This document shows positions 3,536-63,984 of a DNA stretch of 64,000 bases, one piece after another. Under the pieces are notes generated by a model, which worked only from the letters and a program-made list of their open reading frames with translations, did no database searches and had not been told where the DNA came from. Where the stretch lies: NCBI GenBank assembly GCA_905178155.1, contig CAJINV010000004.1:876629-940628 (forward strand), given 5' to 3'. The position numbers were made by a program, and so were the translations under genes. Numbering within the stretch: the stretch's first letter is position 1; each line of letters begins with the position of its first letter. This DNA is from Amoebophrya sp. A120. Taxonomy: Eukaryota; Protista; Dinoflagellata.

Positions 3536-6500
3536 CTAGTTCTCCCCCATTGACCAAAGCCTGTCGTTGGTTTTCAGGCAAACAAACAGCTCCGCCCAAT
3601 TTTCTTTCCACAACCCGCACTGCGCCTGCGTGTCCAGTCGCTGATTCAGTCCCATGTACTGCTCCCCGCGGGCGAGCGAAAACCCGAAAGGATCTTCTTT
3701 CGACTCAAACCGGGGCCAGTGGGGCAGCGGCGGCAGAAGTTCTGGGTGTAATATCAATGGTTCCTCATGCTTGCCGGTCTGCCCGTCCTTCGCGGTGGAC
3801 GTAAGAACGAGACCAGAAGTTCGTGTCTTCTTCCTTGTACTACTTTCATCCACTGATGAAAACCTCGTTGTGCTATCATCTTCGAGCCGCAACGCCGCAA
3901 AACCGAAGCTCCCGATAGAACTCCGCGAAGAGCCTTCAGCACACGAGTCCTCATCCGGAACAGCCGTGCTCGCGTTGCTAGCTATGGAAGCGTCAGGTTT
4001 GAAATCGTCAAAGTTGAAATGATTTGCCATGCATAAAATGCAAGGCATGAAGTGTCTGTCTTGCCGGGATGGCAAGTGAGGCCGAGCGTCAGCCAGTTTA
4101 GGGCTTGAAGTAGAGCTGCTAAAGGAGCATGACAAAAGCAGTCGTCTGTGCACAAACAGCATGACAAATTGAGTTCTGGTGCTCGGAAAATTTGTCATGC
4201 ACCGCTTGAAAATTGGGTATCCAACTGGTATCCGTTTTATGCATGGCAAATCATAGCAACTTTGTCGATTTCAAATAACCTGACGCTTCCATACTAGCGC
4301 GGGTGTTTGTCGTGGTGTAGTCGGCACCAGGGGACATCAGCAGTCCCGCTTTCTTTATTTTCCCAGTCGGTAAGCTCGTCGGAGGTGGAGCACCGCTACT
4401 GTTTTGCGCACAACGCCCTTGCTGCGCTAGTTCTGAAGGAGCAGCCAGCTTCTTCCCTTTGTTCGACGCTCTCGGCGAGATAGTTGTGGTTCCAGCAGGA
4501 GATGATTGGAATTGCACCTGATACCCGTGAAACGGGCTCGATGTTTCCGTTCCTGTTAACATCTTCCCCCCTGTCAGCTGCAAGGTTGGGGAGCAGGAAA
4601 TCTCACCTTCTTGTTCCAATCTGGCCACATCTTCCGGGGCTAGAAAGCGTTTCATCACCATCAGGCGATTCTTAACTTTCTGCTGCTCCACTACTTTCGA
4701 TACCGAGGACACGACCCGTGTTTTTTGCAGACGTCCCTGCACAGATTTTTCGACAGAAGCTGCTTCCTCCACTCCAGCACTCCGACTCATCCCCGATGGT
4801 GAAACCGCGCCGACAGTAAAAGAGGATTGGGATGGCTCTGTCGAGGTACTACTTTGTTCCGACATTGCCAATGTTTCTTTCAACCTGCGATATTCCTGCA
4901 AGAGCGCCGATTCCAGTTCTTTTTTTTTCATAAGAAACCCAAAATCTGTGAACAGCCCGTCGTTGTGGTTTACTGTTGTGGAAGAAGTTGTTGCAGCAGT
5001 TCCACCTCCCACCCTTCCTAGCTGTGCTGCGGCTTGTGGAATTGGTCTTTGCATTGGGCCTTCGTGTCGTGACTCGTCCAGTGGTCCACCAGCAGCAGTT
5101 CCGGCAGCTGCTGAAGTTCTTCCCAGTCCATTCGGATTCCCAAAAATCGCGAAGTTGGCCCAGTACCGCGCCATCTGACTCGCCAAGGTCGCCATCTCGT
5201 TTTTCTTCTTCATCGACACAGACACAGAGGTCTTACTGCCGATTCTAAGAACTCGGTCGTGGTCACCAGCACAGAATGTTGAACTAGAAGTTCTTTTCAC
5301 CTCTGTATGTTTCGCGAACAAAGGCCAACTTTCCCAGCCGTGCGGGACTAAAGGGAGATAATTTTCGTCGTCGTTATCGTCCACATACCCGTACTCGTAA
5401 ACTGGAATCCCCTTCTCCGCCAGAACGTCGCTCGCAAATTCCGTCGGACAGGTGTACTCCCAAGAGGTGAAGGCCCGCTCAGTGGCGAAAAACCACGACT
5501 TGTGCTTCTTGAAGGGGGACTTCTCGTCCGTAATCGGCAGCGTCGGCTTAGACTGCGATTTCGGGTGCGAGAGGTAATTGAAATAAGAAGTACTGGGTGA
5601 ACCAGCTTGTTCAATAACATCTTGGTCGTGGAGGTCATCGCCTTGTTCTGGTTCTCGATCATCCATCACAACATCCTGGTCTTGATGTAGTTCACCTCCA
5701 GCCGCGGCGGCCCCTGTTTGCTGTACTAAATCCAGATGGTCACTTGCTTCCCCAGCTGGTGCACCACGTCGACCAGCTGACGCAGCCACTCCATCCTCGC
5801 CTCCTCCTGCCTCCAACAGTTGAAAGGAGGAAGACCCTCGCCGCAGCAGCCGACCACTCGCCTGGCCGGCCCAGGAGTCTCGGATCCGGGACCACACCGC
5901 TTGGTAGGCACCCCGGCCGAACTCTCGCAGGTCGTTCAACAGATTCACAGCGCAACAGCCAGCACCTCCGTTCGGACCACTGGCGTTGAGGTTGTTGTAG
6001 AGAATTGAGAACGGCTGTACTAGCATTCCACCCTTGTTGGACGCAGCAGCAGCTGCGCGGTCCTGTTCCGCATCCCGAAGGGTATCACTTTCCGCGGGCG
6101 CGTACGCGTCCGCGAGCTGTTGACTGAAATCGAAGAACCAGGAATCTTGATCTTCGCGAGCATCAAGTTCCGGACGTTCTTCGTGTGTCCTCTTCGTAAA
6201 TCCGCCTTTGGCTGGAGGACTTGATGCCGATGTTGACCACGGTTCTAGGCTTTGAAAATTTCCTTGATTTCTTGCCACCTCGGTCCTCGCCGGTGAGGTC
6301 TTCCTTTTTTCAAGGACCTGATCCGCTTCCACCACACCTCCCGGCACGTAGAAGGCCCATTTCAGATACTTCAGGAACGCCTCGCGACTGGTCAAAAGCC
6401 TGCGCCAGCTCAGCGTTTTGCGTTTCGTTTTAGTTCCAGATTTGTTCTTGAAGCCATAATTTGGCTGCATGTTGGAAGAAACTACACCATCACGACCCAC

Positions 6501-9500
6501 GGTTGCGGTGGTCCCTTGTTCGACGTGTTCTTCATCTGGAGCTATCATCTGGACATCGCCGGACGAAGAAGAAGCTCGACTCGTGGTCGCAGTACCAGTC
6601 CCACTGCCCGTCCCATTGCTCGTTTCGTCTCCACCCGATCCGCCGCTCAAAGTACCACCTTCTGCGACGCTAGAAGACGCAGAGGAGGTCGACGTCGAGC
6701 GCTGCATCCCTGATGCTGTTCCATCGTGGCCTTGATGTTCCTCGCCGTCAATGTCCATGTTCAGAATACGATCGGCCTCGTGTTGCAGCAGCTGCTGCTG
6801 CTGTCCATATTCAGAATGCGCGGCTCCCGCGTCACTCCCACCTCCGGTTAGTGGTGGTGCAACCGTTACCGGCACCTCGACCTTTGCCTCTCCCATGAAG
6901 TCCAAGCCGTCATCCCGCGTGTAGCCGTGCAACACGGGTTTCTGTGCGAAGTGCACCCCGGCCGTGCCGTACTTCAAGATCTCGGGCATGGACGCGAGGA
7001 TCTGTTTTTTGTCCACAATCAAGCTCGAATCACAGCCGGAAAAGCAGGGCGACGGAACCGGGAAACCGGCCAGATCGTACTCGGACAGCGTTTTGTGTGT
7101 GTGCACCTGCTGTTTCAACCACGCAGCCATGCAAGTCTGCTTCTCGGAGTTCTTGCGAATATCATGGAACGACGAGGACGAGTTGTTTGTTCCAGCAGCT
7201 CGCGATGGCGGTCCACCTTTGCGGTCTTTGTCACTACTTTCACTTTCCTTTGCCAGTTGTAGATCCTGCCGGCTGTTCCCGAGTTTGCTTCTCTTCAGCG
7301 CAGGAACTTTTGGCGAGTTCGCGGCAGTGGGCGGTTTCGTCGTAATTCCACCACCTGGAGACAATGATCCAGAAAATTCTTGCTGGAGATGTTGCAAAGA
7401 TGGGTCTCGAAACAAGGGCAAACTGCCCGCAGCACGGCTCTGTGGCCACGCGGTGGCAGGTCCACCTCCCGCAGCAGTTCCGAGATGTCCAGCGCCAGCG
7501 CCCGCAGGAAGAACGCCGCTGCTACTAGTACCTCCAAGCTGCAAGCATTCCGGTTCCTGTTTCAAATATTTGGTCGCCTGCACATACAAACTTTCAAATT
7601 GGTCCTCTGCCACATCCAGCCCCGCCGTGCACCACCCGTTAAAGCCCCCACTACTCGCAATTACGTTGGAAAATAGGTCGAAGCTCTTCGGCGAGACAAA
7701 ATGCGCGGAGGCCATGCAAGCCCCCGAGGACTGCCCGAACAGCGTCACACGGGTCTTGTCCCCCCCGAAGTGGTGGATGTGTCGCTGAATCCACTGCAGG
7801 GCCAGGCGCGAATCCAGCAGAGACCAGTTGGCGTAGTCGGCGTCTTTCTCCTTCTGATGATACGGGTATGCTGTGCAAAAGTATCGTACTCGTATAAATG
7901 CTAATGCAAGTCTTGCATTACAAATCTTGTTCCTAAGGCAAATCTGCATTACAAATTTCTCATGCTGATGAAATTTGTAATGCATTTATACGAGTACGAT
8001 ACTTTTGCAGTTCATAACGGGTCGCCTGCTGCAACGGCACCAGTTGTAGTACCGCTGTACACAAGCCCAGTGCTGGCCGCGTGTCCTAGCGTTCCGGCGC
8101 GGATTTGCAACGAGACAAAGAGAAATTCCTCCCTCGAATACTGGAGGAGATTCTTCAAAAACTGCTTCCCGTCGGTTTGGCTCCCGTCCGCAAAACAAGA
8201 GCCCGCGAAGTACACGAAAACGGGCATTTTCTTCGTGTGCTGCGCTGAGGTAGAAGTACTCGTCGTGCTTGTCGCGGTTCCGCCAGCAGCAGGGGCTCCT
8301 TTGACGGGTGGCTGCAGAAGTTTTTGGTGCGGCGATGATGTCTGAGTCGCAGTAGTAGAAGACGTGCCCGCGGCGGAAGCTGTAGAAGATTGGACTGCAG
8401 TTCCAATCTTTGTTCCCTGCCCTTGTTGCTTCGCCTGCAGTTCCAACGCCCTCCTGACCGGCATAGTGATGTCGAGGCGCAGGCAATTTCGGCTCGAGGC
8501 CTGGTCCGGGTTCCGGTGCAACTCGCCGTTTTGGCACCCGGATCGAGACTCAATCGCGAAAAATCGAAAGTTGGAAGGGGAGGGTGGAGGTGGTTGTACG
8601 ACTGCCACAAATGACGATCCTTGCGCTGCAGGAGCTCCTGAGGACAGTGCGTGTTGGTCCTCCGGGCGGAAAGCGGACAATCTCATCGAAGTTGCGTCAT
8701 CTTTATCCTCTCCCTGCAGTTGCCCACTATTCGCGTTCTTCTTCATCGGCACTCGGCGCCGGGTGTTCTTCGGAAGCGAATTCGACGGCGGAGATGCAAC
8801 TTGTCGCTGCGTAGACACGACCGTGCTGGTTGCCGCTCCGGCACTCGCCGCCCCGGTACTAGCGGCTCCAGCAGGTGGCGCATCAGCTCCTGGGACCACA
8901 AAAGCTGCGGGCTGTGCCACAACTACCGGCTGTCCAAGCTGATCCGCCCTCGGCGGTTTCGGGGCCTCCCAGACCTCCGCCTGTCCGTACGCAATCCCCT
9001 TGAAAGTCATATGGGACTCTCAAACGTTACACTCTCAGCTGTTACATGAATTTGTCATGCTAAACCGACCGAAACCACTACACAACCTGTAAGGGCACCT
9101 CACCGCAGATGGTTCGGCCACCAGGTCGTGGAATCAGGCGGACCGAAGCCATCGCCATCACGCTCGGGCACATCATCCTACACGCCAACTTTACCTTACT
9201 TTCGCCACCAGTCCAACTTATCGCCAACATACGTTTAACGTTCGCCAACGATCCAACTTATAGCGCTCACAAACTGCGCAGGGACCGACCAGGCTAACTG
9301 CTATGAGGAAGCAGCAGCCTGCAGCTGGTCCCATGCGTACAAAGTAGATACTATTCGGAATCTTACGGACACCGCAGGCACGAAACCAGCCTGCGATGCG
9401 GTTTAGGAAATTCCGGTAAGCATATGGCAGAGCCTTTATCTTTTGAAAGCCAAGCACCTGAGAGCCAGGCAAAGGCTAGTGTAAAGGTTGCAGCTGAGAA

Positions 9501-11465
9501 TGAATCGACGGAGCTGCACATCTTGACCTCACGATCCAAACGAGGCGCGGACGTGACGGACGATGGAGCCGCTGCGCAGCTAACATAGAAGCGCAAAACG
9601 TCAATGCCAGGCCCATTGTCGATTCCACGGCGGGAAAGCTCCCGCGTCGTGGCCCACACCATCTCCCCCAGCGCTGCCAAGCCTTGAGCTCGCATCTATT
9701 GCGCGCCCCTTTCTCGCATCTATTGTGCTTGGGGAACAAGACTCGATTGAGCTTGTTGCTACTGGCTTGGGCGAGCTGGGGGATGAATTTGTCATGCAAA
9801 ACTACCTCAAGCCGCCAGATGATCAAGCGGCTACGCATGACAAATCTCCGAAGGGCTAAACAGGGCGTAAATCTGTGCCAGCTCTGTGATGCGAAAGCAG
9901 CAAGCTTGCCTCTTCGGCTATAGCTGTTCTTGCGTTACAAATTCATGCAACAGCTGAGAGCGTAACGTTTGAGAACGCCATAAGTCACCACCTGCGGGTC
10001 TGAGAACGGGTCGTCTACCACTACCTCGTCGCGTCGAGCGTGGCCCGCTACTTCTTCCCGCCCTTTTTGTTTCTCGAACTTCTTGTTGCTCGACGCCGGT
10101 AGTTCGGTCACGTAGGTCACTTTTCCGGACTTCTGCAGGGTGTTGCTGGATAAAAAATTCACCTTCGAAGATAAAGAAGAACTGCTCCCCGGTCGTCCAA
10201 CTCCCAAAGTAGGTGTACCAGCACTACCACTCGGCGAGTTGTAGAACAAAACCTTGTCGACTGAAATCGCGATTTGCTGCGGTATCGGAACCCTCTCTTT
10301 GTTACTTGTTTTCACCAGCGGAGCAAGTGCGTCGACGTGCAGAGTCACATGCGGTTGGTGATACTGCTCAGGACCTCCTGTAAACGAGTTCTGGTCTTGT
10401 ACTTGCAGCTCAGCTGTACCACTGATCATGTCTCCGCTGCTGGCGGGCGCGAGGGACCTGGCTCTTTCGTTTTCCATGCCCTTCCTCTCGTCCTCCCCAA
10501 CATTGCTGTCTTCTTGCAACTGGATGATTTTGAAATCGGCGCTATCCGCAAAGGAAATGTCGTCCTCGTCCACGACGGTTCCGTAGCGGCCGACAAGATT
10601 CGCGGGCGCGGATGGGACATCCCGCACCCGGACCAATTGGCCCGCGGTCCACGCTGTGAAAGTACAGATGTTCGATGAAATTTAAGTACACAAAAACAGG
10701 AGGCTTCGGCTTGCTTTTATTGCAAAGATCTCGTCCCAAGAAGTAACAAGCATCGCTGTGCTACAAGCTCGCAACTTAACAGGTCGCATCTATGTTCCTG
10801 CTTGTAGGTAGCTGGCGATTAGTGTCTCAACCGATCGCCACCGGAGCTTGACCGATCGCCAACGGAGCAGGCACAAAAGGGAAATCTAAAAAACAAAATC
10901 TACAAAACATCAAAAATAACATCAAGTACGGATGACACAGGTGTGAAACCCCGACCCTCCGATGCTTCCGTTGCAGCCGTTCCCTTCAAAGCCAATCCGG
11001 CAGCACATCCCCCCGGTGCCGCACGCGGCGCAGGGACCGTTTTCGTGGTCGCATATCCTGTGCAAAAGTATCGCACTCGTGCTAATTGCCTTTATGCATT
11101 ACAAATTCAATTTTTCATGCTGAGAAAATTTGCAATGCAGTTTGTACTAGTTCGATGCTTTTGCAATGCATATCACAGTGGTTCCAACAATCGTCCTCGC
11201 CGGGCTGGAGAACTATGGCTTCACCGCCCTCACCGCCGCCGCCCATGTTCCCGAAAATATTGCAGGCGTCGCCCCGACTGCTCCGGGTTCTGGTGAGGGC
11301 GGAAACAGATGAAGCACGATAGAGTATCGTCACCGTGAGGACCATGGCGCTCAGCATTTGTGCCATTTGTAGTCCTCTCTTGCATTTTTTTGCTCGCAAG
11401 ATCATCTTCGGTAGCTGCGATGACCAGGTGCGGAAAACGCCACCTGCACCAGGCAAAAATGACAT
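3536..11465 (-). CDS. Type-B carboxylesterase/cholinesterase-family protein with N-terminal hydrophobic segment and Cys-rich domain; 6 exons, ~2026 aa
   Basis: Exons approx 11465-11173, 11048-10930, 10653-9983, 9004-8017, 7861-4294, 3977-3536. Motifs: VTFKGIAY, NCLRLDITMP, PVFVYFAGSCF, NWSLLDSRLALQWIQRHIHHFGGDKTRVTLFGQSSG (nucleophile), GYTRDDG, PHGWE, YWANFAIFGNPN, HWPRF...QCGLW. One GT-AG intron (10929-10654) and four introners. Confidence 0.85.
3983..4293. mobile_element. Introner (family I, TATGGAAGCGTCAGG termini)
   Basis: ~55-60 bp imperfect terminal IR; flanking 5-bp DR ctagc. Removing 316 nt joins the two esterase ORF frames. Confidence 0.9.
7867..8016. mobile_element. Introner family A (TATnnnnTGCAAAAGTATCG)
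   Basis: IR termini; DR acggg. Removing 155 nt gives GDPYHQKEKDADYANWSLLD. Confidence 0.92.
9010..9982. mobile_element. Introner family D (TATGG..CTCAAACGTTAC) carrying a nested 722-bp insertion
   Basis: ~50-bp IR; DR agtca. Removing 978 nt gives DPQVVTFKGIAY. Ends align with the 216-bp copy at 24703-24918. Confidence 0.9.
9061..9782 (-). ncRNA. Putative retroposed structured RNA / SINE-like insertion with 15-bp TSD
   Basis: Flanked by atgaatttgtcatgc at 9046-9060 and 9783-9797. At least 6 stem-loop domains with G-U pairs favouring the minus strand; no convincing ORF. Confidence 0.6.
11054..11172. mobile_element. Introner family A
   Basis: TATCCTGTGCAAAAG / CTTTTGCAATGCATA; DR tcgca/tcaca. 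Removal joins CWNHCD-HENGPC. Confidence 0.88.
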
Positions 11466-11497
11466 GGATCTTGTGTGTTTGTTGTAACTCGGAAAGA

Positions 11498-32235: not shown

Positions 32236-32390
32236 CAAAAGCAACAGTACAGGTACAGCAATAAAACGAATAATTTTTTTTACAGGATGGACGCAAATAG
32301 GCTGTAGTGAATCAGTGCTCAACCAGAGGGATGCTCACAGCACAACATACACTTCAGCCTATTTCTCTCTTTGCGACAGCGATCCTCCTC

Positions 32391-46700: not shown

Positions 46701-49700
46701 CATCAAAATATCAGCGTTGATCAGCTTGGCGCAGGCCAGCTGCATCTTCACCTTCCAGCCACCGGAGTAGGTGGTGATCGGGTTGCACATGTCCGCTGCA
46801 GCCTTCAGGTTGACGCCCTTGGCCTTGTTCTTGAACCCGATCAGGCCGAGCTCCGCTTCCGCGTCGGCCAGGGTGATCGGCGGAGACTTCTTGTACACGT
46901 TGTTCACGGTGTCCACGCAGAACTCCATTCCGTTCAAATCGATGTTGAACTTACCCAGCGGCCACTCCTTGCTCTCTATGCAACACAAATTTCTTGCCCT
47001 CGCACAGAACAGCACGACCCAGAAAAGAGAATGATGCAACGTCATCAATGATTCCTCTCTTCACGCGATGAGAACGACAGGGGAGATCTCGAACTTGTTC
47101 CGCGAACCTCTTTTAACATGCCTCTTCAGTGTACTATGAATCTACTGTGCTTCGTGTTCTATCTCGGGAACAAAATTTTCACTGTGGATACTCGGTTCTT
47201 CGAGCATGCGCTCCTCGACCTCGTGCTCGACGAAGATGGTAACCAACTCGTCGCGCTTCGGGAAGCCCTCAACCTTTTCCTTGGAGATGGCGCGCATCAG
47301 GGTGGTCTTACCGCAGTTGTTCGGTCCGAGCAGGGCGTAGAACTTGTTGCGCTTCAGGTGCAACTTGGTGTCACGGAGGAGGGTAAGCGTTCCGTAGGCG
47401 AGGGAGAAGCTGCCCTTGTAGAGATCCGGGGCCGGATCCTCATCGATGAACTCGATCTCCGTGTTCTTACCAGCGTTGGCAAGCTCGTTCATGATACCCT
47501 CCACGGCCTTGGGGTCGGACACGTACGGTCCGAGGACCTCCTTCCAGGCAGCGAGATCGTAGCTGTGTTGGTGGTGGAGAGAATGGTGGTTTAGGATTTT
47601 AGGAGCAATTAGGCGGGAAGAGACGATTTTAAAGTCATTCGAAATCGATTTGTTACTGCTGAAAGGGAAAAGACGAAACAGTACTTCGCACTCAACCCGC
47701 CGCACAAAGCATAATCAACATCGAACGATTGAAAGACAGTAATCTCGCTCTTAGGTGCAACAGTCCTGATCAAGAACTGCTAGTGAACAACAGTATACAG
47801 CTCCCATTCCGACAATCTTCAACGAATGATAAAATTAAAAAACAACATGTTTACCAGTTCGCCTTGTTCATGGAGTAGGAGACCTTCTGCAGGTAGACGG
47901 CGACGGATTCGTTCAAGAAGCCCAAAGAAGTGTGCTTGTTCGCGACTTCCTTGAAGTCCACCTCCGGCTTCGGGCCGACGGCGTGCAGCTTCTGGATGGT
48001 GGCCAGGCACTTCTCCGCCATCTCACGGCAGTCCGGGTCGGAGATCTCGGCGGCGCGCTTCTCCACGAGGGGAAGAATCTCCGGGAACAGCGGCTGACCC
48101 TCACGCGGGTCATCGACCAACTTACACCTGAGAAAGAGGGTTTGCTTCGAAATTTGAAATCAAAGATTGCGTGCAAAGCATCAATTTGCACTTTGCTAAT
48201 TTGCGGAAAGACGAAAATACTATCCGAAGAGATTGGCAATCTTGACTGTCACTACGTTAAAGAACCTTCACCCCACAACAAAAGGGGAGAAGGGGTGAAC
48301 GCGCAGTTGGTGGTTTGGCAGAAAAATTAGGAGGAGTTCCACGGAAATTTCGAAATTCCGCGCTCCGCTGGAATTCTGCACAAAGTGAAAGTCCTTACCT
48401 ATCTGCATGACAAGGAATCGAAAAAAAGGTGATGAAACAAACATATCTTAGAGTGTATTACAAGGGGGGGCTGGCACAGATGACAAAACCACAGATGAAC
48501 AGATGACACAGATGACAATTTTTGAGTGTCATGCAAATTTTGAGACACAGATGACAGATGACGCCACCACTCTCCGCCATTTTCCGTGTCGCTCGGCTTC
48601 CGCATCAATCAGAATCCGGTCGTGGGAATCCGAATTTTATCGGAGTCCGCCTGTGCGTTGCAAAAATCTAGGAGCTAGCTCATGCCTGTGCGTTGCAAAA
48701 AATCTAGGGTCGGTTCGTGCGTGTGAAAATGAAAATAGTCCGTAACACGCGGACAATAAGCGGGACGCTGGCAGAAGTGTGACGCTTTTCTTGGAAATAT
48801 TACTATGATGGGCCACAGAATCACGCCTGCCCTTCTATGCCTATGCATGGGCTGGCTTGCCCTTCTAGTTCTAAAGTCCTCTACTCCGCGCGCTTTTCTG
48901 TTCGAAGGGTCTTCTGGTTCTGGATAAAACTCCCGGGCGTCCACTCTGGGCTGCTGCTCGCCTATGAAAATACTACTACGTCATCTGTGTCTAATCAGTA
49001 TCCTGCAACTAGTTCTGTATTAGGGGCCGCCTTCCGCTTTCGGTTGTGATGATTTCGGGGTGCCGGTTTTTGATGTTCCAATTTTGTCATCTGTGTCCAC
49101 AGATGACAAAAGTTCCGCATTCGCTCAAAATGTTGAAATTTGTCATCTGTGTCATCTGTTTCATCTGTGTCATCTGTCATCTGTGTAGTAAAACAGTCTA
49201 ATATCTTTCTCGCAATCACTGGTTCTACTTGGATCACCACGAGAGCGCACATAAAACTAAAACAAGAACCGTATCATATTTATCAATACATGTTATCGAC
49301 GATGACGCAGCACCGACGCTGAGTGGCCTCGGACTTGGTGTTCAACCCACGCCAGAGCACCGGGGTGATGACCGCCAAGTGCGGAGCCTCGACGTTCTGC
49401 ACGAAGACGCACCCGGCGAGCTTCTCGACGCACTCCTCGACGTTCTTCAAAGACTCGTTCGCCTTGATGATGGTCGGGATAAAAGATTCCGCAACCACGG
49501 TCGCGCCCTCCTCGGAACCGATCAAATCCTTGTTGCCGCAGGTGAAGCACACGGTGTTCAAGGTGTCCTTGGCCTTGGCCTTCACTTCCTTCTTGATATC
49601 GTTCATCAGGAGTACAATGGGCTGGATGATCCACTCAATCTCGCGGGCGAAAGCCTTCGGGTGCTTCTTCGCGAACTTCTCAACCAGGGTGAGCGCAAGC

Positions 49701-50100
49701 TCCTTGGACGGGGGCTTGGCCTTACCGTCGAGGGCCTTGTCCAGACCATGGAGGGAAACGGACGCGGACCAAGCCTCGGACTTCTCGAAGATCAGGGTTG
49801 CGACATCCTCGGCGGCCTGGGATGGGAATTGATTTTGTATTGCAGGATTCAATGCCGGAAATAAAAATTAATGCGAAACCTAAGACTACAATGTCGACAC
49901 GCGAAAATTGAAAGATTTGAATCTAATCATACCTTGCTGACTGGCTTTTCCTTGGAAGCGGCAGCCTCCAGCACGGCCGGGAGTGCCTCATAGGACTCGA
50001 TGAGCTTGGTTTTGTCTCCGCCCTCAACGTATGCCTTCAGCGCGGTCAAGCCGGCCTCAGCTTCCTTCTTGGAACCGATCTGAGAGATAATGGCGTCCAT
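43719..50100 (-). CDS. eEF3: Translation elongation factor 3 (ABC-F), 10 exons, ~1036 aa
   Basis: HEAT region (FVQNVEAPHL...IVDNMCKLVDDP), ABC1 (GPNNCGKTT, YSGGWKVK, LMLDEPTGHLD), ABC2 with chromodomain (GPNGAGKST, YEYEVKW, LSGGQKVK, ILDEPTNYLD). Seven GT-AG introns and two introner-derived introns; exon lengths sum to 3111 nt. Confidence 0.93.
44364..44514. mobile_element. Introner family E with diverged DR
   Basis: IR termini; flanks gatgc/gatat. Removing 156 nt gives NPHILILDEP. Confidence 0.88.
46977..47190. mobile_element. Eroded family-E introner, now GT-AG compatible
   Basis: Ends tatgcaacacaaattt / aattttcactgtggata; interior diverged; flanks ctctc/ctcgg. GT-AG intron 47191-46976 (216 nt) is in frame. 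Confidence 0.7.
48449..49200. mobile_element. MITE with inverted ACAGATGAC arrays nested in eEF3 canonical intron 2
   Basis: TIR tagagtgtattac / gtaaaacagtcta (11/13); 6-bp TSD atatct at 48443-48448 and 49201-49206; about six ACAGATGA copies left and about six inverted copies right. Confidence 0.75.
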
Positions 50101-51553: not shown

Positions 51554-54500
51554 CTAGGACAGTCCATTGTGTCTCAACAGCGCATCCACGGTTGGTTCCC
51601 GACCGCGAAATTCCTTGAACACCTCCAACGGCGCGACGCCTCCGCCGAGCCCCAGCACCGTATCTGCAAATTTTCGTCCAGTTTTTTCGATCTCCTTCTC
51701 GTTCTGCAGCCCAACTTCCTCGAACGCGGCGAAGCAGTCCGCGGACAAGACTTCCGCCCACTTGTAGCTGAAGTAGCCCGCTGCGTAGCCGCCCGCGAAG
51801 ATGTGCGCGAAGGAGCAGAGAAAGCGGTCGTAGGGGAGTAGTGGTAGGACGTCAAATTTGTCCGAGACCTTCTTGTCCACTTCCCACATGGTGTATGAGA
51901 GTGCACAAAAAGTTCATCTTCGCCTCCCCTTCTTCATTTGGCGTGCGAAACGCGATGTCTTTTCCTACGTTTCAAAAATTTTGCATGAGAGAAGTGAGAC
52001 CCACAAACAACGCCACGCTATGTTCGTTGTAGACTAAGATTTCTCACGCAGAGCATACACATTTCTATCCTAGCTCTCTCTGGTGTTGCTAGTTTTCCAT
52101 TCCAAAGGAGGGAGGCAAGGGGGTGTGGTTGTGCACTCTCATATGGTCTGTTCTGCCTTCTTCACCGGGTCGGACTTTTCTGCAGAGGAACCATCTCCAG
52201 CAGCAGTGTAGTACCTGGAGTGCAACTCTAAATCGACGAAGGAAAAGTGGAGCTGTCGCAGCATCATGCTTGCCGCCCGGTAGTTCTTGGCCTTCACCAG
52301 CTTCTGAAACAGCGCGTCCGGCAGTTTTTCCCCCGTTTCGTAGTGAATCGCCATGGAGTCCACGGTTGGCTTGTCGTAGCACCTATGGGGTCGCCAAAGT
52401 TGTATTTGCCTCAAGCTGTAAAAAAATTTCCGCGCGCCTTTTTTTGTATTTAATGCCCATCATGCTGCACGCGTATAGCCTCCCGCTATGTTGCGCACCT
52501 AATGAACTCGCTAGCTTATTCGCAGCGCTTCTCAGTGGCTAAAGACGGAGCTATCCGGCGCTGCTGCTCCACAGACTTGCCTTGGAGCGCCCGTGCAACC
52601 TGGAGGTGCTGCAGCAGGTTCTCTTGCAGTCCAGCCGCTAGACAATGGGTCTCAATCTGTGCAAGTCGGTCGGAGCCGCTGGCGCAAATGGAACCGGCCG
52701 CGGCTGCGCTCCCCCTTGTTTCTAATGTCGCGCAGCTGTGCGCGCGTGCACCGGCAGGCGCGCGCGCTTTTTGCCTTTGCGGCTTTTTCTTGAAAATGCG
52801 AAAAGCCCGAGAGCCTTTCGGGAGGGGTTCCGAGAGGGGTTCCGGGACCCCTTTTGGGGAGGGGTAGCACCATCGTGATTCGAAGAAAAAGCGGTAGGGT
52901 TTTTTTTTAGGGTTCCGGGCACCCCTGCGGCCCCCCCTTTTTGGAAGGGCTCCGGATAGGCCTTCGCGGCCAATATATGTGCGCGGCACCCGCTAGAGAC
53001 GACGACGCCAGGGCCTGAGTAGACATATCGGGGGGCGCTTGCAGCCTCACACCCTGACCCAGGCCATAGCGGCAACTAGCTTCACGGAGAGAGCAATCCG
53101 GAAAACAAAGCAAAACATTGCGGGCGCCCGGCGTTTTCTATGTGAAAACATCAGCCAACAAAGAACCCTCAACGCCCCGCCCTCCTCCACGTCAGTACTC
53201 ACCTACCTACTAGAGCTCTGCTGCTGACAAGCTAGCTAAAACAAACCGCGTTCAGGTCAGCCCTTCACTTGCGTGCACAGGTTTACTAGCTTTGCGACGC
53301 GAAAAAATGCGCGCAGAATTTTTTTGACGGTCTGAGGCAAATCGCCATGGAGTCCACGGTTGGTTTGTCGTAGCACCAATTTTCCATGAACTGCGACGGC
53401 TGCTCTACCGCGTCCCATTCAACGTTCCGGATTCCCGCCGCCATCCCCTCGGATTCCTTGGTCAGCATGTGCTGTAGCGCGTGGCCGAATTCGTGGAACA
53501 AGGTTTCGACCTCCCGGAAGTTCATCAACGACGGGATTTTTTTCTCGCCGCTCGTCACCGGCGGCGTTTATGGATTGCAAAAGTTGTACTATCCTCGCAT
53601 ACAGCGGCAACTGCGTTGCGAATTTTTCCAAGGACGACAATGAAGCTTTTTCAACATTTTGAAAATGCGCATTCAGGTCGAGTAAAAGCAGATCTGTCAA
53701 CACGCGGCGTGGCAGTTACTAGTACCAGTATGAGCACGAAACTTTTGCAATTATGCATACTGTCTGGTTGCACACCATGTGCGCGACGGGCAGTCGGATC
53801 TTCTTCTCTCCTTGCACCAGCTCCGGGTTCGCGGTCCTCCCGCACACCTCGTCCATCCACGCGCCGCCCTTTTTCGTTTCAGGCCGGGAAAACGGGTCGA
53901 GGTAGAAGTAGGAAACCACTTCATTGTCCTTGACTATCTCAAACACCATCACGTCCTCGTTCCAGAGGGAGACTCCGAGCTTTGTTTTTTCCTCGGCCGA
54001 CGCGATTTCCCGGATGGAAATCCCGAATAACTTGTTCGCCAGGTTCCACAGCCCCGATAGGACCTTTGGTAAGGGGATATCAACGGCAAAAGTTCTTGTA
54101 TCGCACGAGGGCGCAGTAGTAGCAATACTGTATCTAATAGATATGACTACAAACCTGCACCTGGTGATGTCTACTACAGGAAAAAATAAACAACTCAGCA
54201 ATTATGACAAGTTATTCCGCTTGTCGACATCATGCTAAAGAGCAAATGCAAATTTGTATATGCCACCAGTACTACCGCGAGGACACTTTCGCTTTTGCAA
54301 CGCGTAGGAAAAGTAGGGCTTCAGCTCCTCTTCGTTGAACTCGTATTTCATCTCTTTCATTCGTTCCGCGTAGTAGGGCACGTCCCACTGCATCAGCTTC
54401 TCGTCCTTCGGGAACGGCAGTTTTTCGTACTCCGTCTTCGCGAATTTCTCCAAGTCTTCCAGTTCCTTCACCGTATGCAATGCAAAAGCATCGTACTAGT

Positions 54501-57231
54501 ATAAATTGCATTACAGATTAGCCCAGCGTTACAAATTAAATTTGTAATGCTGATTTACCTTGAGAAAGAGATTTGTAATGCATAAATGCAATTACTTACT
54601 ACGGGTACGATACTTTTGCACAGGATACACCGCCGTCGCGTACGATTTGGACCGCAAATCCTCGATCAACTTGTTCGCGGACTCAAAGGTCGCCATCTTT
54701 TTTGCCATGGACACCTCGGCGTAATTCTTGTACCCAAGCAGCTCCGCGTTCTCCTGGCGCAGTTTCAGGATTTCCTCCATCAGCGGCGTGTTGTCCTTGA
54801 TTTTCCCCTCCTCGTCCTTGTCACATTGCACAACTCCCCCTCGTTCTCATTTCTCATGCAAAATACCAAATCCACGCTTTGCCTCCTGTCACTATTACTT
54901 ATGCATGACAAGTTCTGGTAGCCCGAATAGCACTACAATCCAGTGGAAATCTGTCATGCAAAACCGGCACCCTTGCTGATGCTTGTATTGCCGTTCATGC
55001 TATACAAATGAGGGGGAGGGGGAGTTGTGCACTGTCATAGTCCTTCAGATCCGTGCTGAACTCGCTCGCCCGCTTCAGATGCGCCTGGTACATCTTCTTC
55101 CGCAGCTCGCGGTCGGTGGAGTGCTGCATCACCGGCAAATACGACGGCATGTCCAGGGTGAACAGCCAGGGACCGTCTTCAGCGGTGGCAGACTCTTCCT
55201 TGCCTGGAGTTCGTTGTTGGGGATTTTTCTTTTCCGGTGTTTATTCTTGTTGATGCTGATCTTGAGTTGTTAACATGATCTTCGTCTCAAGTGATGAGGA
55301 TGCGGGAAAGAGTACATCAAAGGAGGTCTAGGTAGACGACATGATCAGCACCAACTTTTGCAGGTGCTGGCGCAACACAAGTTTGGATTTTTTTAATCTT
55401 TTTTTGCTACGACGAAAAACCAAAAAGCTCCTCTACAATTGATTACCTTTCGTTTTTGCTTGCTGAGCTCCGAGTTGCAGCGCTGAGGTTGGTAAGCCCG
55501 CGACTTCTTCCTGATATTCGTATTTTCATTTTGAAGAGAGCATTATTTAAGGTTTTACAGTATCCTTTCTGTCCCGTGCGGCGTGTCACCAGGAGCCGCA
55601 CGTCATCGTATTCATATTATTATTATTTTTAGAGCGTAAGAAATGATTCTCATTCTTCGCCAGATTGATGCATGAAAACACATGACAAGAGACGTAGAAA
55701 AATCGACATGCACATCCGCATGCTCATCCAAATTACATTTTATCGCATACAACTCAACGAAGTGGATATCAACATACCCTTTTCGTGAGTTTGACCGAGA
55801 ATGCCTTGGTTGCATCCTGCAAGTTGTTCGTGAATTTCGTTTTCAGTTCGCCCATCCTCTTTGTGTTCGCGTTATACTTGACTTTTTTCTCCCCGGTCAG
55901 CCCAACGCCCGACAATTTCGCCGCCAGCAGCTCGTGCTCCACGATCCGGGCCTGGCTTTTTGAGAAGGTTATCCTGAGTAAAAGCGTCCCCATAACAGAG
56001 TTAAGCTGGGAAATCTGCTAGACAAATCAACCAGATATGGTTGCTTCGCATGACAAGTTTGTCCTGGTAGTGTGATCCTGTTTAGCTAGTTCCGAAGCAT
56101 CACAGATCTAGCATATCATGCCGATAGTAGCATCACAAATTCCACAACACGACTAGAAAATGGCTCTCATGAGGCTCCGCATGAGAAACTTTTTTGGCAT
56201 GCAAATTTGCATGACAACTCTGGGGTGGGGACGTTTTTACTTAGGATAAAGGTTTTCTCCTTCTTATCCTGTTCCGACAGAAACTGCCAGGCCTTGTACA
56301 GTTCCTCGCTCTGCCCCATCCGGAGCCCGAATTCGATTACTTTCGGCTGCATCTTCTCCACGACCGCGCGCAGCGCGTCGGAGTCCTTCACCGATTTCAA
56401 GTGTTTCACCACGCCCCACGCCCGGGAGAGCTTGTCATCGAACTGCTCCACTTCTAGCGCAACCTCGGCGTAGGTGAGGTTGGGCGTGGGCTTCGCAAGC
56501 TCGTCCTTGATTTTCGTTTCCAGCTGCTCCAACGACTTCAAAGCGTGCTGCAGGTGCTCTTCGATGCCGGGTTCCACATGGTCCGGCGTCACCTCGCCAA
56601 ACGGCGGGAAGAGCTGGGACCCCGGGAAAAGCAGCGGGTTTTTGTGTGTCGCCCCGTCGCCCGCGGGTGGTAAAACCGGCGACATGGTCGTGCTCAGACT
56701 GCGGGAGGAGGAGGAGCTAGTACGGGTGGACTGAAGGTTGTTCTTCGCGCTAGTGGAAGCTGAGGAAGAACTACTGGATGTAGTAGCTCCGCTGCTTGCG
56801 CTTTGTCTATTCCCCGTTAGAATCCCCGTAGGACTAGTTGTACTGGAGTTACTAGTACCACAACCTGCGAAGAGAAAACAGATGCCGAGTAGAAAAGCGG
56901 AGAGACAGAAATAGCGCTTGACCGCACTGTAGTTTAAGCACTGCGCGGTTATGGATTTCAGAAAACTACCAAAGCTAGATGGATTGTTATTAAAAGAAGT
57001 GCTATCGCTGTTAAAGAGCAATTGGTGGAGCCTCGCGACCCTGGCCGCGCTACTTCTATGGCCGCCGAAGTCCGAGGTGGAACTTCGGTCGTCCGGGTCG
57101 TCGACCGGGGTGCCGAGGTCGATGTCCTCTAAAATAGTAGCTTGCTGGTCGTCTACAACTTCCGCTCGGTTTTTGCCCAGGATTCTCTGGTGGTAGTTAC
57201 TACTGCTTGATGACCCTAAAAAAGACGCCAT
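51554..57231 (-). CDS. prlC: Oligopeptidase A (peptidase M3A), 10 exons, ~939 aa, with N-terminal hydrophobic/Ser-rich extension
   Basis: [47 protein letters not shown] (HEXXH), [42 protein letters not shown]. Six introners and three GT-AG introns; exon lengths sum to 2820 nt. Confidence 0.93.
51894..52143. mobile_element. Introner family G (TATGA.AGTGCACAA)
   Basis: 15-bp perfect IR; DR tggtg/tggtc. Removing 255 nt gives EQTMWEVD. Confidence 0.88.
52346..53377. repeat. 38-bp exon duplication (52346-52383 / 53340-53377) bracketing a 994-nt intron
   Basis: aatcgccatggagtccacggttgg[c/t]ttgtcgtagcacc occurs twice, each copy encoding [12 protein letters not shown]. Confidence 0.92.
52404..53342. 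mobile_element. TIR element (ATTTGCCTCA... termini) inside the duplication-bounded intron
   Basis: ~40-bp imperfect TIR; GC-rich interior with ggggttccg repeats; no TSD seen. Confidence 0.7.
53569..53759. mobile_element. Eroded family-A introner
   Basis: tatggattgcaaaagt / acttttgcaattatgcata; DR decayed. Removing 196 nt gives CNQTPPV. Confidence 0.8.
54078..54306. mobile_element. Eroded family-A-like introner
   Basis: tatcaacggcaaaagt / cttttgcaacgcgta; flanks gggga/ggaaa. Removing 234 nt gives PYF[S/P]LPKVL. Confidence 0.78.
54474..54627. mobile_element. Introner family A
   Basis: DR caccg. Removing 159 nt gives TAVKELEDL. Confidence 0.92.
54819..55039. mobile_element. Introner family G (TGT left end)
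   Basis: tgcacaactccccctc IR; DR gtcct. Removing 226 nt gives [14 protein letters not shown]. Confidence 0.88.
55970..56248. mobile_element. Introner family F (TATCCT.AGTAAAA.CGTCCCC)
   Basis: DR aaggt. Removing 284 nt gives [12 protein letters not shown]. Confidence 0.9.
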
Positions 57232-59184: not shown

Positions 59185-62051
59185 TCATCTTCGCATCTCT
59201 GCCATTTCCCGCTGTTCTCGCATTGTTCGTGCGTGCAAAACCTTCGCGTCGGAGAGCAAGGAACAAGACCCAGCACCAGCTGCCGTAGTTGTACGAGGGC
59301 CACTGCCTCTATTTTTACTGTTCCCCGACAGAAGCGACGTCGAAGTAGAGGAGGTGGGTGCCAGTTGTGATTCATGACTATGCAGCAGCGTGTACAAGTT
59401 GCCTGAGGTAACCGCGAAGCTGTGTAAAACCTCGGCATCCTTCGCTTCCTGCCGCTGTTTCCGCTTCTGCTTCTCCTCTTCCTCTTTTTGCCTCCGCAAC
59501 CCGATGCGTGCTTTAATCGCGGCGAGATCGACGGTGGTGCCGAAATTGTTGATCATCTGGATAAAGTTGTAGCCCGGGATGCTCGGGGACAGAAGGGCTT
59601 TTGAGGCAGTAGTTCCATTTGTTGCGCCTGTTTCGGCGTCGACGTGGTCCTTGATCTGATTTATCAGCTCCTCTGAGGTGGAGCTCCTGTGAAGATCTCC
59701 AACAACTTCTACCGTCTCACAGCACGATGCAGCCGAAAAGTCTATTCTGCGCGCAGTCGTGAAGGCTCCTGCTTCATCTTCCGCAGGTGCTGTGTTGTGC
59801 CGGCTGGTGACGAGAAATGAGGAGTTCGTCTCTGATTGTTCTGGGACGAGAACTTGAGCTTCATCTTTCATCTGCCCACCCGACGTCGTGAAGGATTCGG
59901 AAGACGAATCAGAACGAGACTCTTCGTTTTTCGTCATTTTGATTTTCCACTTTCGGTAACTTCGTCGAATTTCCACGAGGTTGTACTGGTCTGCGAAATC
60001 GTCATTTGGTTCGCGGCGAAGTAAATGACGCTCGTGCATTTCCTCGGGCGCTCGCTTCGTTCCAACAAAACAAGAAGAAGAAGAAGAGGAACCACTCCTC
60101 ATCTGGCGCTTTATTTCTGCAGCTGCGTGGTCATCCACTTGTCGCGAAACCAGCTCGCTCCGTGGGTTGTACGCAGAAAGAACTACAGGCGTGCGCGACG
60201 AGGACAACATCATCCCATTCCCACCGCCACCATTCACAACTTCGTACACGCTGAGTTCGTGTTTCCTATGCTCGCTGGCCCGCGTGTTGTCCAAAACGCT
60301 CCTATGCATTGCAAGAAAGTATCGCACTCGTATAAATGCATTACAAATTTCCTCAGCATGAAAAACAAAATTTGTAATGCTGATTTGCCTTAGCAAGATG
60401 ATTTGTAATGCATAACTGCAATTATACGAGTACGATACTTTTGCACAGGATAGCTCCATGCGTAGTACAAAACGAAGAAGCAGTATCACGAGAAAGAAGT
60501 GTTACAGTTACACATTTGTTGGAGTTTCTGCATCACAAATTTTCTCTGTGTGGCAGAGAAAACTTGTAATGCGAAAATCATAAGGGAAAACAGCAAGGAA
60601 ACGAGGCTCCGAAGCATTTCCTGCATGAGGAAGGTTGTCTCAGTTGCCAGTTTTGCATGACAATGTGTAACTGTAACACTTTTTTCTTGTGATAAGCAGC
60701 CCGCGAGGGAGACCAGCACCCCGCGCATCTCCGACTTCGCCTCCGCGTCTTCCGTATCAAATGCAAAAATGTCTGGGTCTGGAAGATTGCAACTTGTCAT
60801 GCTGTCTTTAGATTCCACAAAAGTCTGTATTGCCTGACCGGCAAAAGGAGTCCAGTTTGTGCTACTCGGAGAGGGCATTTCTCATGCGGAATACGCACCA
60901 GAAAGCCCTCTCAAAATCTGTGATGCTAGGCCATGCATTACAGCCATAATGCGTCATGCAAATTATGCATGACAAACCTGGCACTCTTCCAGACCCAGAC
61001 ACTTTTGCAATTCATATTCCGCTGCGATAGCCGCTTCGCACGCTCGTCTCTGCTTCTCCTCAATGTTCTGGCTGCGGAGCAGGTCCTCCACGGACATGGT
61101 GGATCTGGCACCACTACTAGCATTTTTCCTCTCGGCCTGCTGTGCTGTGTTCGATGAATCATGATCCTGGTCCTGAAATGAACTAGTCCCACTTGTTCTT
61201 CCCCAAGAACTTCTACGCGACCTCGTGGCTCTTTGCTCGTTCTCCGAGCTCAGCATCTGCTTCTGGAATCTCTCTTCCTCGTCGAGCAGCTTCAACGCTT
61301 CCTGGTACTGTTTTTTCATCTCCACAAATGCTGCGGTCGTGCTTTGCTCGCTTCCGTTTTTGGTAGGATTTTTTGCGTGGTATTGTACCAGATCCGGATG
61401 CAGCTTTTTTGACTTCGCGAAGTACGCCTTTTTCAGCAGCCTGCGGTCGACTTTGTCCACGCCGAAACCCGTTTTCAGTAAAAACGCCAGTCGCTTCCGA
61501 CGCACCATAGCGGGCATGCTGTCGGTGCTGCCGGGCGAATTGTGGTGCTGCTGGTCATGCCGTGCTGCTGAAGCTGTAGTGAAGAAAACCCGCCGGAGGT
61601 CTGGTGCTCCTCGGTGTACTAGTCCTGTCCTTCCCCTGCTAGTTGTATCAGGTTCGTGCCGAAACACCTGGTGCTGAAGACCCGTACTGCTACTAGAGGA
61701 GGACGACGAGCATGTGCTTCTTGGAATTGCCCGCGGTAGAGAGGACGAGAGGCAACTGTAGCCCTGGAGGTGCTGTGCTGGAGCTGCCAAGAGCCCTGGT
61801 CGGAGCTGCACTACCTTCAGGCGGGTGGCAAAGGGGTTTCGGTGAATGTGCTGGGCAGTCGAGGTGCTGGGCGCGCTACGAAATAGTACACCAACCGCGA
61901 GGTGCTCGGACATGTGTGACTGGCAGTTGCTGGGTGTCCGTTTGCTCTGGAATACTTCCGATTCAGAGCAATTGCGATAATGTTGCCCTTTGACAGAGCT
62001 GTCAACCAGAGAGGTTGAGCTGCTCCGTCTGCGGCGCAAGATCGCCATCAT
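59185..62051 (-). CDS. J-domain (DnaJ-type) membrane protein, 4 exons, ~742 aa
   Basis: LKKAYFAKSKKLHPD...AFVEMKKQYQEAL. Spliced TM segment GVLVSLAGCFFVLYYAWSVL; Arg/Ser-rich N-terminus; three introners. Confidence 0.78.
60303..60452. mobile_element. Introner family A
   Basis: DR gctcc. Removing 155 nt is in frame. Confidence 0.92.
60484..60694. mobile_element. Introner family H (TATCAC.AGAAA.AAGTGTTACAGTTACACATT)
   Basis: 33-bp IR; DR agcag. Removing 216 nt is in frame. Confidence 0.92.
60755..61016. mobile_element. Introner family B
   Basis: DR ttccg. Removing 267 nt gives AAEDAEAKS. Confidence 0.92.
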
Positions 62052-63453: not shown

Positions 63454-63984
63454 TTATTGGGTCCCAAAGGGCCGCATCTGCGCAGCGAAATCCACAAATC
63501 CGAGTCGGCGGGACTGGCTGCCGGCGAACCGCTGCCAGAGCAACTCGATCTCCTTGGTCCGCACGTTCCGCTGCTCCAGGATGGCTTTTTGGAAGTCCAG
63601 GAAGGAGATGTATCCCTTGTCGTCCGACATCAGGAGGAAGGCGTCCAGCAGCGCGGTATATCCTGTGCAAAAGTATCGTACTAGTAGTAATCCTAATCGC
63701 AGTCATGCATTACAAATTCTCTTCTTAAGGTAAACCCGCATCACAAATTTTATTTCCCATGCTGAGAAAATTTGTCATGCGATTCATACTAGAACGATAT
63801 TTTTGCAGTTCATACGGTAGACAGCGCGTCCACGTCCATCATGAGCATTTTCCGGAACCGCTCCGTGTCCTCGGCCGCGTCGATTGCGAACTTCAAGTAC
63901 TGCTTGATTTTGTGCTTCTGGGTCAAGGTCAACCGGAACTCCGTGTCACGGTCGTCGCCGATCAGGTTGCAGCGGAAGGGCGTG
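63454..63984 (-). CDS. 3' end of an EF-hand-like protein gene (starts beyond the window)
   Basis: Spliced ...MDVDALSTALLDAFLLMSDDKGYISFLDFQKAI...EIELLWQRF...LGFVDFAAQMRPFGTQ*. Confidence 0.72.
63659..63814. mobile_element. Introner family A
   Basis: DR cggta. Removing 161 nt is in frame. Confidence 0.92.

Follow-up and report, generated by a model that had tools for sequence, protein, structure and literature searches.

Transposon-like introners in coding exons of Amoebophrya sp. A120, two of which are precisely missing from the mRNA of an elongation factor 3 gene

Introners and their host genes in a 64-kb window

The window analyzed here, a contiguous stretch of 64 kb of Amoebophrya sp. A120 DNA, holds 25 delimited TAT…ATA elements of 119-973 bp flanked by 5-bp repeats, plus one damaged copy, and all 25 elements sit in minus-strand open reading frames. 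Two of the host genes, for elongation factor 3 (EF3) and M3 oligopeptidase A, contain exons identical (100%) to proteins named Amoebophrya sp. A120, over 123 aa (P0073) and 82 aa (P0001), respectively. The features are as follows, with both copies of the repeat where two are given.

43720..50100 (outer limits approximate), minus: EF3 gene, seven GT-AG introns and two introners
51557..57231, minus: M3 oligopeptidase A gene, five introners and the damaged copy
3983..4293, minus: introner, 311 bp, CTAGC/CTAGC, carboxylesterase-like gene; in-frame G/TAT…ATA/G pair 3 nt off register; no RNA read
7867..8016, minus: introner, 150 bp, 150-bp family, ACGGG; located between positions 150 and 157 of the COesterase profile
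9010..9982, minus: introner, 973 bp, AGTCA
11054..11172, minus: introner, 119 bp, TCGCA/TCACA, mismatch at sense position 3; no RNA read
20307..21121, minus: introner, 815 bp, CAACA; close to the C-terminal end of an ORF for a TPT-like transporter
21667..21931, minus: introner, 265 bp, 250-290-bp family, CAGGA
21983..22142, minus: introner, 160 bp, 150-bp family, TTTCA
22837..23122, minus: introner, 286 bp, 250-290-bp family, TGAAA
23357..23508, minus: introner, 152 bp, 150-bp family, ACAGC
24251..24402, minus: introner, 152 bp, same family as 44364, AGGAT; mitochondrial-carrier-family gene
24454..24610, minus: introner, 157 bp, 150-bp family, GGGTG/GCGTG, mismatch at sense position 4; no RNA read
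24703..24918, minus: introner, 216 bp, CGAAG
25900..26151, minus: introner, 252 bp, 250-290-bp family, GCGCT
26249..26569, minus: introner, 321 bp, CAT…ATA, CCGTG/CCGCG, mismatch at sense position 2
44364..44514, minus: introner in EF3, 151 bp, GATGC/GATAT; RNA skips 156 nt
46977..47190, minus: decayed introner in EF3, 214 bp, CTCTC/CTCGG; RNA skips 219 nt; ends no longer pair
51894..52143, minus: introner in M3 oligopeptidase A, 250 bp, TGGTG/TGGTC; contig piece ends at 51887
52385..53340, minus: damaged nested copy in M3 oligopeptidase A, lacking one outer end, with 37 bp of duplicated exon in place of the 5-bp repeat
53569..53759, minus: decayed introner in M3 oligopeptidase A, 191 bp, GCGTT/CTGTC, three mismatches
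54474..54627, minus: introner, 154 bp, 150-bp family, CACCG; orientation opposite to 24454 and 63659
54819..55039, minus: introner, 221 bp, TGT…ATA, GTCCT
55970..56248, minus: introner, 279 bp, AAGGT; contig piece starts at 56249
60303..60452, minus: introner, 150 bp, 150-bp family, GCTCC; DnaJ-domain gene, outside the coverage of the RNA runs
60484..60694, minus: introner, 211 bp, AGCAG; DnaJ-domain gene
60755..61016, minus: introner, 262 bp, 250-290-bp family, TTCCG; DnaJ-domain gene
63659..63814, minus: introner, 156 bp, 150-bp family, CGGTA; EF-hand gene; a contig piece stops at 63653

A search for TAT…ATA pairs that have both an exact 5-bp repeat and an end-complementarity score of at least 12 gave 17 in the window, whereas none of 20 block shuffles yielded any; the 25th element (46977-47190) was found through its RNA joint. 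TAT is present at 48/50 element ends, the exceptions being the CAT of 26249 and the TGT of 54819, and A occupies end positions 12, 13, and 14 at 43, 42, and 43 of the 50 ends. The ends pair better than those of 294 or more among 300 shuffled versions in every element except 46977 (24/25; a separate shuffle test left out the two copies longer than 330 bp). The repeats are perfect in 18/25 elements and carry one to three mismatches in the other seven (11054, 24454, 26249, 51894, 44364, 46977, and 53569), and they share no consensus. The initial annotation had described 25 elements with terminal inverted repeats and 5-bp repeats of this kind, and its description was reproduced in both respects, all 16 of the repeats it quoted being recovered, even if the two sets of 25 may differ by one or two members.

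Three families (eight, four, and two copies, with 68-85% identity) account for 14 of the 25 elements, and one family is found at 119 loci in another assembly, where 85/108 unique copies carry the 5-bp repeat without mismatch, with 79 different sequences among the 85, and where 87/112 copies are perfect at 5 bp, whereas no other length from 2 to 9 has more than 11 perfect copies. This is the fixed-length duplication of free target sequence that characterizes MITEs, and, judged by length alone, the elements are also short and without a transposase gene, the longest stop-free stretch in the two long copies being 152 aa. One family is inserted in both orientations, as expected of a two-fold symmetric signal, and the internal repeat TTGT[C/A/G]ATGC, common to unrelated families, is probably a transposase DNA signal. 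Copia-type integrases produce 5-bp target duplications. Farhat (2021, PMC7789003) found no A120 transposase, and family 38 of the A120 introners, which has terminal inverted repeats and a Copia-related putative transposase, is a candidate source of the 5-bp duplications in the same genome, the window elements, unlike it, being non-coding (Gozashti 2025, PMC12130899).

Some features of the repeats are recorded here as observations uncorrected for multiple tests. The middle position is less often mismatched (2/18 single mismatches elsewhere and 1/11 in the window), and G stands at sense position 1 in 21/44 loci elsewhere vs. 5/25 window copies. Among mismatched copies of the other assembly, no homologue was found that would tell exon from intron for L094 and L032 (33 aa), and five flanks gave no Pfam match; L100, considered as an exception because its upstream repeat gives TAA, was set aside, since on inspection by eye it looks like an element lying within a GT…AG intron.

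Reading frames, mRNA joints, and the position of the cut

If kept, the elements would bring in-frame stops into their host genes (24/24 tested, and likewise 46977). Under a codon model, removal of the element plus 5 nt is preferred to removal with 3 or 4 nt in 25/25 cases; a longest-ORF test favored 5 nt in 14/25, being weaker than the codon model, and a plain open-frame test in the other assembly had no power (52/102 loci stayed open with 5 nt, and 49-55 did so with other lengths). The restoration of frame upon deletion that had been claimed agrees with the codon model. That conserved motifs return in every case was, however, an overstatement, since the homologue check was limited to EF3 and the M3 peptidase, and junctions in stretches without a Pfam match or homologue test include 3983, 9010, 11054, 20307, and the three in the DnaJ-domain gene.

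Ordinary GT-AG introns lie in the same genes, as previously stated, seven joints of this type being listed for EF3. None of the elements, in contrast, offers a GT or GC…AG pair in any register that removes exactly the element and one repeat (0/25), i.e., U2-type ends are absent there, and GA-AG ends are possible in such a register in two. The initial annotation had counted two elements with GT..AG at their ends; in 3983 and 46977, G/TAT…ATA/G at the very ends is in frame and 3 nt short, hence off register, and a third GT..AG pair occurs within 6 nt of the ends at 23357.

The two copies whose joints were read are missing precisely from mRNA without the usual intron end signals. At 44364, the joint 44358>44515 is supported by 300 RNA reads with 93 starts, with 0 reads inside the element at 44426, and an available ATA/G acceptor is not used. 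The joint of 46977 (46971>47191) has 179 RNA reads with 80 starts, vs. 214 and 198 for the neighboring canonical joints, and appears in the contigs of two further runs; 219 nt are skipped, and the in-frame GT…AG of 216 nt is not the junction used among the joints listed. Bin depth was 1238.8 vs. 1237.9 expected for full skipping, and the joined form predicts the junction peptides …NPHILILDEPTN… and …LEEPSKEWP…. The mapping of RNA across junctions proposed in the initial annotation thus gave exact removal for both EF3 copies, and its central statement, that MITE-like introners leave mRNA without GT-AG beside ordinary introns, agrees with both. For the 11 copies in the stretch examined, evidence of removal is direct in these two and indirect in six, the remaining three having no coverage; the other 14 lie outside it. 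The end pairing of 46977 does not exceed that of shuffled sequence (127 of 300), yet nearly all of its transcripts lack it. A hairpin alone is thus an insufficient explanation, and the suggested structure-guided excision is weakened by this copy.

Copies with mismatched repeats allow the cut site to be placed from existing data. The mRNA of 44364 keeps upstream repeat positions 1-2, which belong to the His of PHILILDEPT, a residue kept in 71/72 homologues, and at 51894, upstream repeat position 1 is retained as a Gln in the annotated protein. At 53569, repeat position 5 derives from the downstream copy, giving NQTPP rather than NQTAP, and the Pro is found in the annotated protein and in 64/67 homologues, with depth arithmetic as further evidence at this copy. 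Since positions 1-2 are upstream-derived by RNA and position 5 is downstream-derived by protein in another element, the cuts likely fall inside the 5-base repeat. If one register serves all copies, the cut would lie between 1 and 3 nt ahead of TAT and, correspondingly, 4 to 2 nt past ATA, its upper bound coming from RNA and its lower bound from annotation and conservation, not reads, at one old copy (53569, with three mismatches). Codon use in the host gene of 53569 (ACG 10, ACA 2) weakly favors a cut 2-3 nt before TAT; at 11054 (TGC 11, TGT 7) it is uninformative. The earlier proposal to fix the cut from mismatched repeats hence yielded an interval, through 44364, 51894, and 53569, but not an exact register, and splice sites are called variable in the Fig. 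3 legend of Farhat (2021, PMC7789003). The damaged copy at 52385..53340, for which a GT…AG register exists, is partly retained in RNA contigs, at a depth of 34 vs. about 300 (about 11%).

Possible routes of removal

We envisage that a transposase supplied in trans would make cuts staggered by 5 bp at any target site and insert the element there, as its anatomy suggests, and that it would then be transcribed in either orientation, removal of both orientations being indicated by annotation and contig edges. The element and 5 nt would be taken out of the RNA, as at 44364 and 46977, possibly by endonuclease cuts and ligation or, by analogy, through a Euglena-like route that releases a full-length circle, the end-to-end stem perhaps helping in young copies without being strictly required. 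No lariat, circle, or other intermediate was observed, and none of the joints listed is a circle joint, although libraries of the poly(A) type would miss circles. For the published A120 introners, we consider the chances about even that a dedicated machinery recognizes the terminal motifs, cuts within the 5-nt repeats at a set distance from those motifs, and rejoins the exons without GT-AG chemistry. In its favor, U1 snRNA was undetected in A120 (PMC7789003, section 10) but is present in an Amoebophrya with canonical introns, according to the available text of PMC12005148. The broader proposal, to which we give slightly less than an even chance, is that spliceosome-independent splicing of nuclear mRNA reads transposon termini and cuts at a fixed point in the target duplication, so that insertions are harmless and the terminal motifs, maintained for splicing, outlive the stem and the internal signals.

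It is also conceivable, and we regard it as a serious though not the probable explanation, that a U2-type spliceosome altered to work without U1 takes N/TAT[G/C] as a 5' site with a free first base and measures the 3' site 4 nt from ATA instead of at an AG. TAT[G/C] matches positions +2 to +5 of the canonical donor, as EF3 donors start with GTA in 7/7 cases and with GTAT in 3/7, and the decayed copies that have lost the internal motif (46977 and 53569) both have G before TAT. A120 keeps 83/89 spliceosomal proteins together with U2, U4, U5, and U6 (PMC7789003, section 10); non-canonical ends are processed by tunicate spliceosomes, as described in the accessible part of PMC11282704. On the other hand, G precedes TAT in only 9/25 window copies and 12/44 copies elsewhere, the 1-nt register at 46977 ends between three adjacent AGs, none of which is used, and the codon use at 53569 leans weakly away from that register. 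The two main models differ in the register they require: a cut 1 nt ahead of TAT would point to the altered spliceosome and one at 2-3 nt to a separate cut-and-ligate route, and present data are compatible with both.

Excision from DNA in the expressing stage, as for the internal eliminated sequences of ciliates, whereby RNA would never hold the elements, had been offered in the initial annotation as an option and is very improbable. Terminal inverted repeats and TA-rich ends are indeed DNA-type signals, and contigs drop rare variants, the DNA-like run X1 being of unspecified life stage; nevertheless, its contigs, whose depth is even at about 27-30 in genic and spacer DNA alike, read through intact copies of 46977, 51894, and 53569, and its depth is 0 for both EF3 introner joints. 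Repeat mismatches have also accumulated, which fits a repeat copy that remains intronic over long periods, and we know of no separate somatic nucleus in Amoebophrya.

Every RNA datum passed through reverse transcriptase, and run X11 carries what we take to be a template-switch adapter. Yet template switching at a hairpin and direct repeat, a known artefact signature (available text of PMC4176328) that would leave the elements in cellular RNA, is scarcely credible, given that only 3 nt of homology exist at both joints, that skipping is essentially complete in two runs and, for the stem-less 46977, in a third, and that every element holds in-frame stops while skipping brings back the conserved His and a length equal to that of the closest homologue.

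Known systems and significance

The window elements are published A120 introners, and the class is already known. They show the inverted repeat, of 8-20 nt in that class, joining the ends, the boundary direct repeat, the TAT and A-run ends, the families, and the non-canonical removal by which those introners are recognized; the class has been in print since 2021, as have its TAT motif, its 5-bp repeats, and the proposal of an alternative splicing mechanism (Farhat 2021, PMC7789003, available text). The link to non-canonical introns of Amoebophrya bounded by inverted and direct repeats, which the initial annotation had made, was correct and applies to the A120 genome itself. That text likewise describes inverted repeats of TAT, about 7 variable nt, and AAA, boundary repeats of 3-5 nt, families, and RNA-seq support, with a 5-bp example in the Fig. 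S19 legend (PMC7789003). In its available portion, however, the intron border is unfixed, and bounds from mismatched repeats, an ignored GT-AG pair, a stem-less copy, and the internal 9-mer are absent. What is added here is the likely placement of the cut within the repeat, the unused in-frame GT…AG at 46977, and excision without pairing ends. No later paper on how A120 introners are removed, or on Amoebophrya introns and RtcB, was found in the literature outside subscription papers.

Splicing of the tRNA type and by IRE1/XBP1 is also a cut-and-ligate process guided by RNA shape and short motifs without GT-AG, but it acts on few fixed substrates and, unlike the window elements, involves no target duplication. 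According to the accessible parts of PMC12501133 and PMC11282704, the nonconventional introns of Euglena are likewise MITE-like, with paired ends, direct repeats at the junctions, a constant spacing between stem and junction, GT-AG introns beside them in one gene, and an unknown machinery. Their code, N3-CDG…CHG-N5-6/R, nevertheless differs from TAT…ATA with spacers summing to 5 nt, so the window elements lack euglenid ends; intron circles are reported for Euglena, whose lineage is unrelated to Amoebophrya (PMC12501133; PMC11282704).

GT-AG is absent from about two thirds of A120 introns (PMC7789003, Table 1). If true, a spliceosome-independent pathway would be convergent with that of Euglena, and the majority of the introns in the A120 genome would pass through it. 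Either model would extend the known scope of nuclear splicing and explain how transposons could flood exons at little cost.

The introners of the window and their relatives

Scanning the window for TAT…ATA pairs flanked by repeats yielded 17 whose 5-bp direct repeat is exact and whose ends are strongly complementary, against 0 in 20 shuffles, and with relaxed cases included 25 introners of 119-973 bp were delimited, bearing out the number, sizes and coding-exon placement of the initial annotation. All are located in minus-strand ORFs of seven genes, several of them named from Pfam matches under the curated cut-off:

Host genes (minus strand, Pfam): carboxylesterase-like, TPT-like, mitochondrial carrier, EF3 (elongation factor 3), M3 peptidase, DnaJ-domain, EF-hand

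All gene models built across the window (1-64000) were minus-strand, resembling the co-oriented gene blocks reported for Amoebophrya. The flanking repeats are perfect in 18/25 introners and carry 1-3 mismatches in 7/25, with no consensus at any position among these 25 copies, while the element ends show TAT in 48/50, G or C at position 4 in 50/50 and A at positions 12-14 in 42-43/50. Three families account for 14 copies, and the 150-bp family is present in both orientations relative to transcription. Retention would introduce in-frame stops in 24/24 introners in one test and in 46977 (copies are named by window start), which was checked separately. A codon model trained on exons without elements preferred excision of the element plus 5 nt over plus 3 or 4 nt in 25/25, in agreement with the earlier claim that removing the element and one repeat restores the frame; simpler tests of the frame gave weak support or had no power.

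This introner class is real and already known for the A120 genome. Two window exons are 100% identical to proteins named Amoebophrya sp. A120, and the available portion of Farhat et al. (2021, PMC7789003) describes in A120 itself, as stated initially for Amoebophrya, RNA-seq-supported non-canonical introns whose inverted repeats, 8-20 nt long, start with TAT and which have direct repeats of 3-5 nt, reports U1 snRNA as not detected, and proposes a distinct splicing mechanism; the window introners match this description in TAT ends, A at 12-14 and families. U1 is retained in an Amoebophrya with canonical introns, according to the accessible text of PMC12005148. Among 21 of the 58 A120 supplement rows of Gozashti 2025 (PMC12130899), TIR DNA elements make up most families; the study also reports one A120 family with a Copia-related putative transposase.

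The 9-mer TTGT[C/A/G]ATGC occurs 53 times in the window, 51 of them within elements, which occupy 10% of it, and a relaxed form is present in 23/25 introners. Repeats are most diverged in the two introners lacking it, 46977 and 53569, whose interiors show no similarity to the other copies compared; from sequence we read both as old copies. A 28-base pattern from the 150-bp family found 119 loci (L001-L119), every one on JACKZZ01 contigs, whose strain may or may not be A120; window flanks gave 0 matches to these loci. Candidate ends numbered 117, of which 112 exceeded the score threshold and 108 were unique; the 5-bp repeat was perfect in 85/108, no alternative length fits, and the codon model preferred plus 5 nt in 74/106. 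Mismatches were fewer at the middle repeat position of the 108 unique copies (2/18), and, should this scarcity prove genuine, both sides of the middle base could serve as cut points. One copy (L100:294-442) lies 5 nt past a GT donor and 12 nt ahead of an AG, so tight a fit that a tiny ordinary intron may be almost all element; at L004:300-700, a pair of copies stands about 75 nt apart within one flank, one starting CAT.

Removal from RNA

Four of 13 listed runs (X1, X3, X9 and X11) were compared over 44001-64000, a region of 11 introners, the other 14 lying left of 44001. Among the joints listed, beyond which there are 686 more, seven GT-AG introns and two introners of EF3 are skipped, so that the RNA check proposed initially yields direct joints for 44364 and 46977. 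Joint 44358>44515 (44364) is carried by 300 reads with 93 starts in X11, a run covering EF3 only whose resemblance to a low-input library means that its reads are not all independent; zero reads lie inside at 44426, and an X3 contig at depth 1843 contains the joint as well. For 46977, joint 46971>47191 is carried by 179 reads with 80 starts and by contigs in X3 and X9, and X3 bin depth there is 1238.8 against 1237.9 expected under full skipping, X3 being classed as RNA by the tool's guess only, though it does skip canonical introns. Contig edges are consistent with removal of 51894, 55970 and 63659. Removal of 53569 agrees with depth, which is 313 there and 302 nearby, where retention would give 221; the annotated protein lacks 54474 and 54819, and the DnaJ-domain gene, with three introners, had no coverage in the runs compared.

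In EF3 coding sequence, 53/494 X11 reads carry an additional A at 44083, seen in neither X3 nor X1 and probably an amplified library error. In an observation recorded for 50445 and 45146, X11 reads enter an adapter-like tail directly at 50445, where no spliced-leader letters were seen, while the X3 contig extends to 50507. One damaged copy was also recorded:

52385-53340 (with flanks 52348-53377), minus strand: damaged nested introner (sequence and RNA contigs)

Of its two elements, the outer retains one end and the inner carries separate 41-nt arms; the whole is bracketed by an exon stretch duplicated over 37 bp, whose two copies differ by one synonymous change. It is apparently retained in RNA contigs (depth 34 vs ~300, ~11%) and could be spliceable as a GT…AG intron. 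Within the canonical EF3 intron 48128-49289 (1162 nt) lie inverted arrays of a CACAGATGA unit together with the introner internal motif in two copies, which may represent a further element within an ordinary intron. A stop-free frame of 699 aa at 13127-15223 (minus strand), which has a Cys/His knuckle and matches RNase H weakly, under the cut-off (E 0.04), looks like an intergenic retrotransposon remnant.

Position of the cut and mechanism of excision

The mRNA at 44364 and 46977 retains positions 1-2 of the upstream repeat copy, which yield a His present in 71/72 EF3 homologues at 44364 and, at 46977, the spacer length of the closest homologue, in a spacer whose pattern matched only 15/73; the cut therefore lies at most 3 nt before TAT. 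At 53569, a Pro found in the annotated protein and 64/67 homologues requires position 5 of the downstream copy, placing the cut 1 nt or more ahead of TAT. If a single register serves all copies, both junctions fall within the repeat; codon use weakly favours a cut 2-3 nt before TAT. No introner (0/25) offers GT-AG in the register removing the element plus one repeat. The two GT..AG elements counted initially are probably 3983 and 46977, where G/TAT…ATA/G does occur, in frame but out of register, leaving 3 extra bases. The junction used at 46977 spans 219 nt, not the 216-nt GT…AG, and the AG of ATA/G at 44364 is unused.

The proposal of structure-guided excision is weakened: ends are paired in most copies (z <= -2.3 in 21/23 folded), and end duplexes are better than at least 294/300 shuffles in 24/25, but 46977, with 0.1 expected end pairs and 127/300 shuffles equally good, is nearly fully removed. 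A hairpin alone is thus insufficient to explain excision, and short terminal motifs are, from this one copy, better candidates for the signal.

We give about even odds to a dedicated route that reads the introner ends, cuts and ligates. An altered spliceosome using N/TAT[G/C] as donor appears somewhat less probable; canonical EF3 donors all begin GTA and G precedes TAT in both old copies (46977, 53569), but in just 21/69 copies overall. Excision from DNA, also raised initially, is very unlikely, as X1, a run with the behaviour of DNA, covers 46977, 51894 and 53569 as intact copies and has neither EF3 introner joint, and a reverse-transcriptase artefact of the kind treated in the part of PMC4176328 consulted is more improbable still. 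Euglena nonconventional introns work similarly but with a different code, as far as the available text indicates (PMC12501133; PMC11282704). Our literature search returned no paper fixing the cut site or machinery; figures S19-S25 of Farhat et al., outside that search, may bear on the register. It is the cut register that discriminates a dedicated cut-and-ligate route from an altered spliceosome, and what is added here to the known A120 introners is three new constraints.
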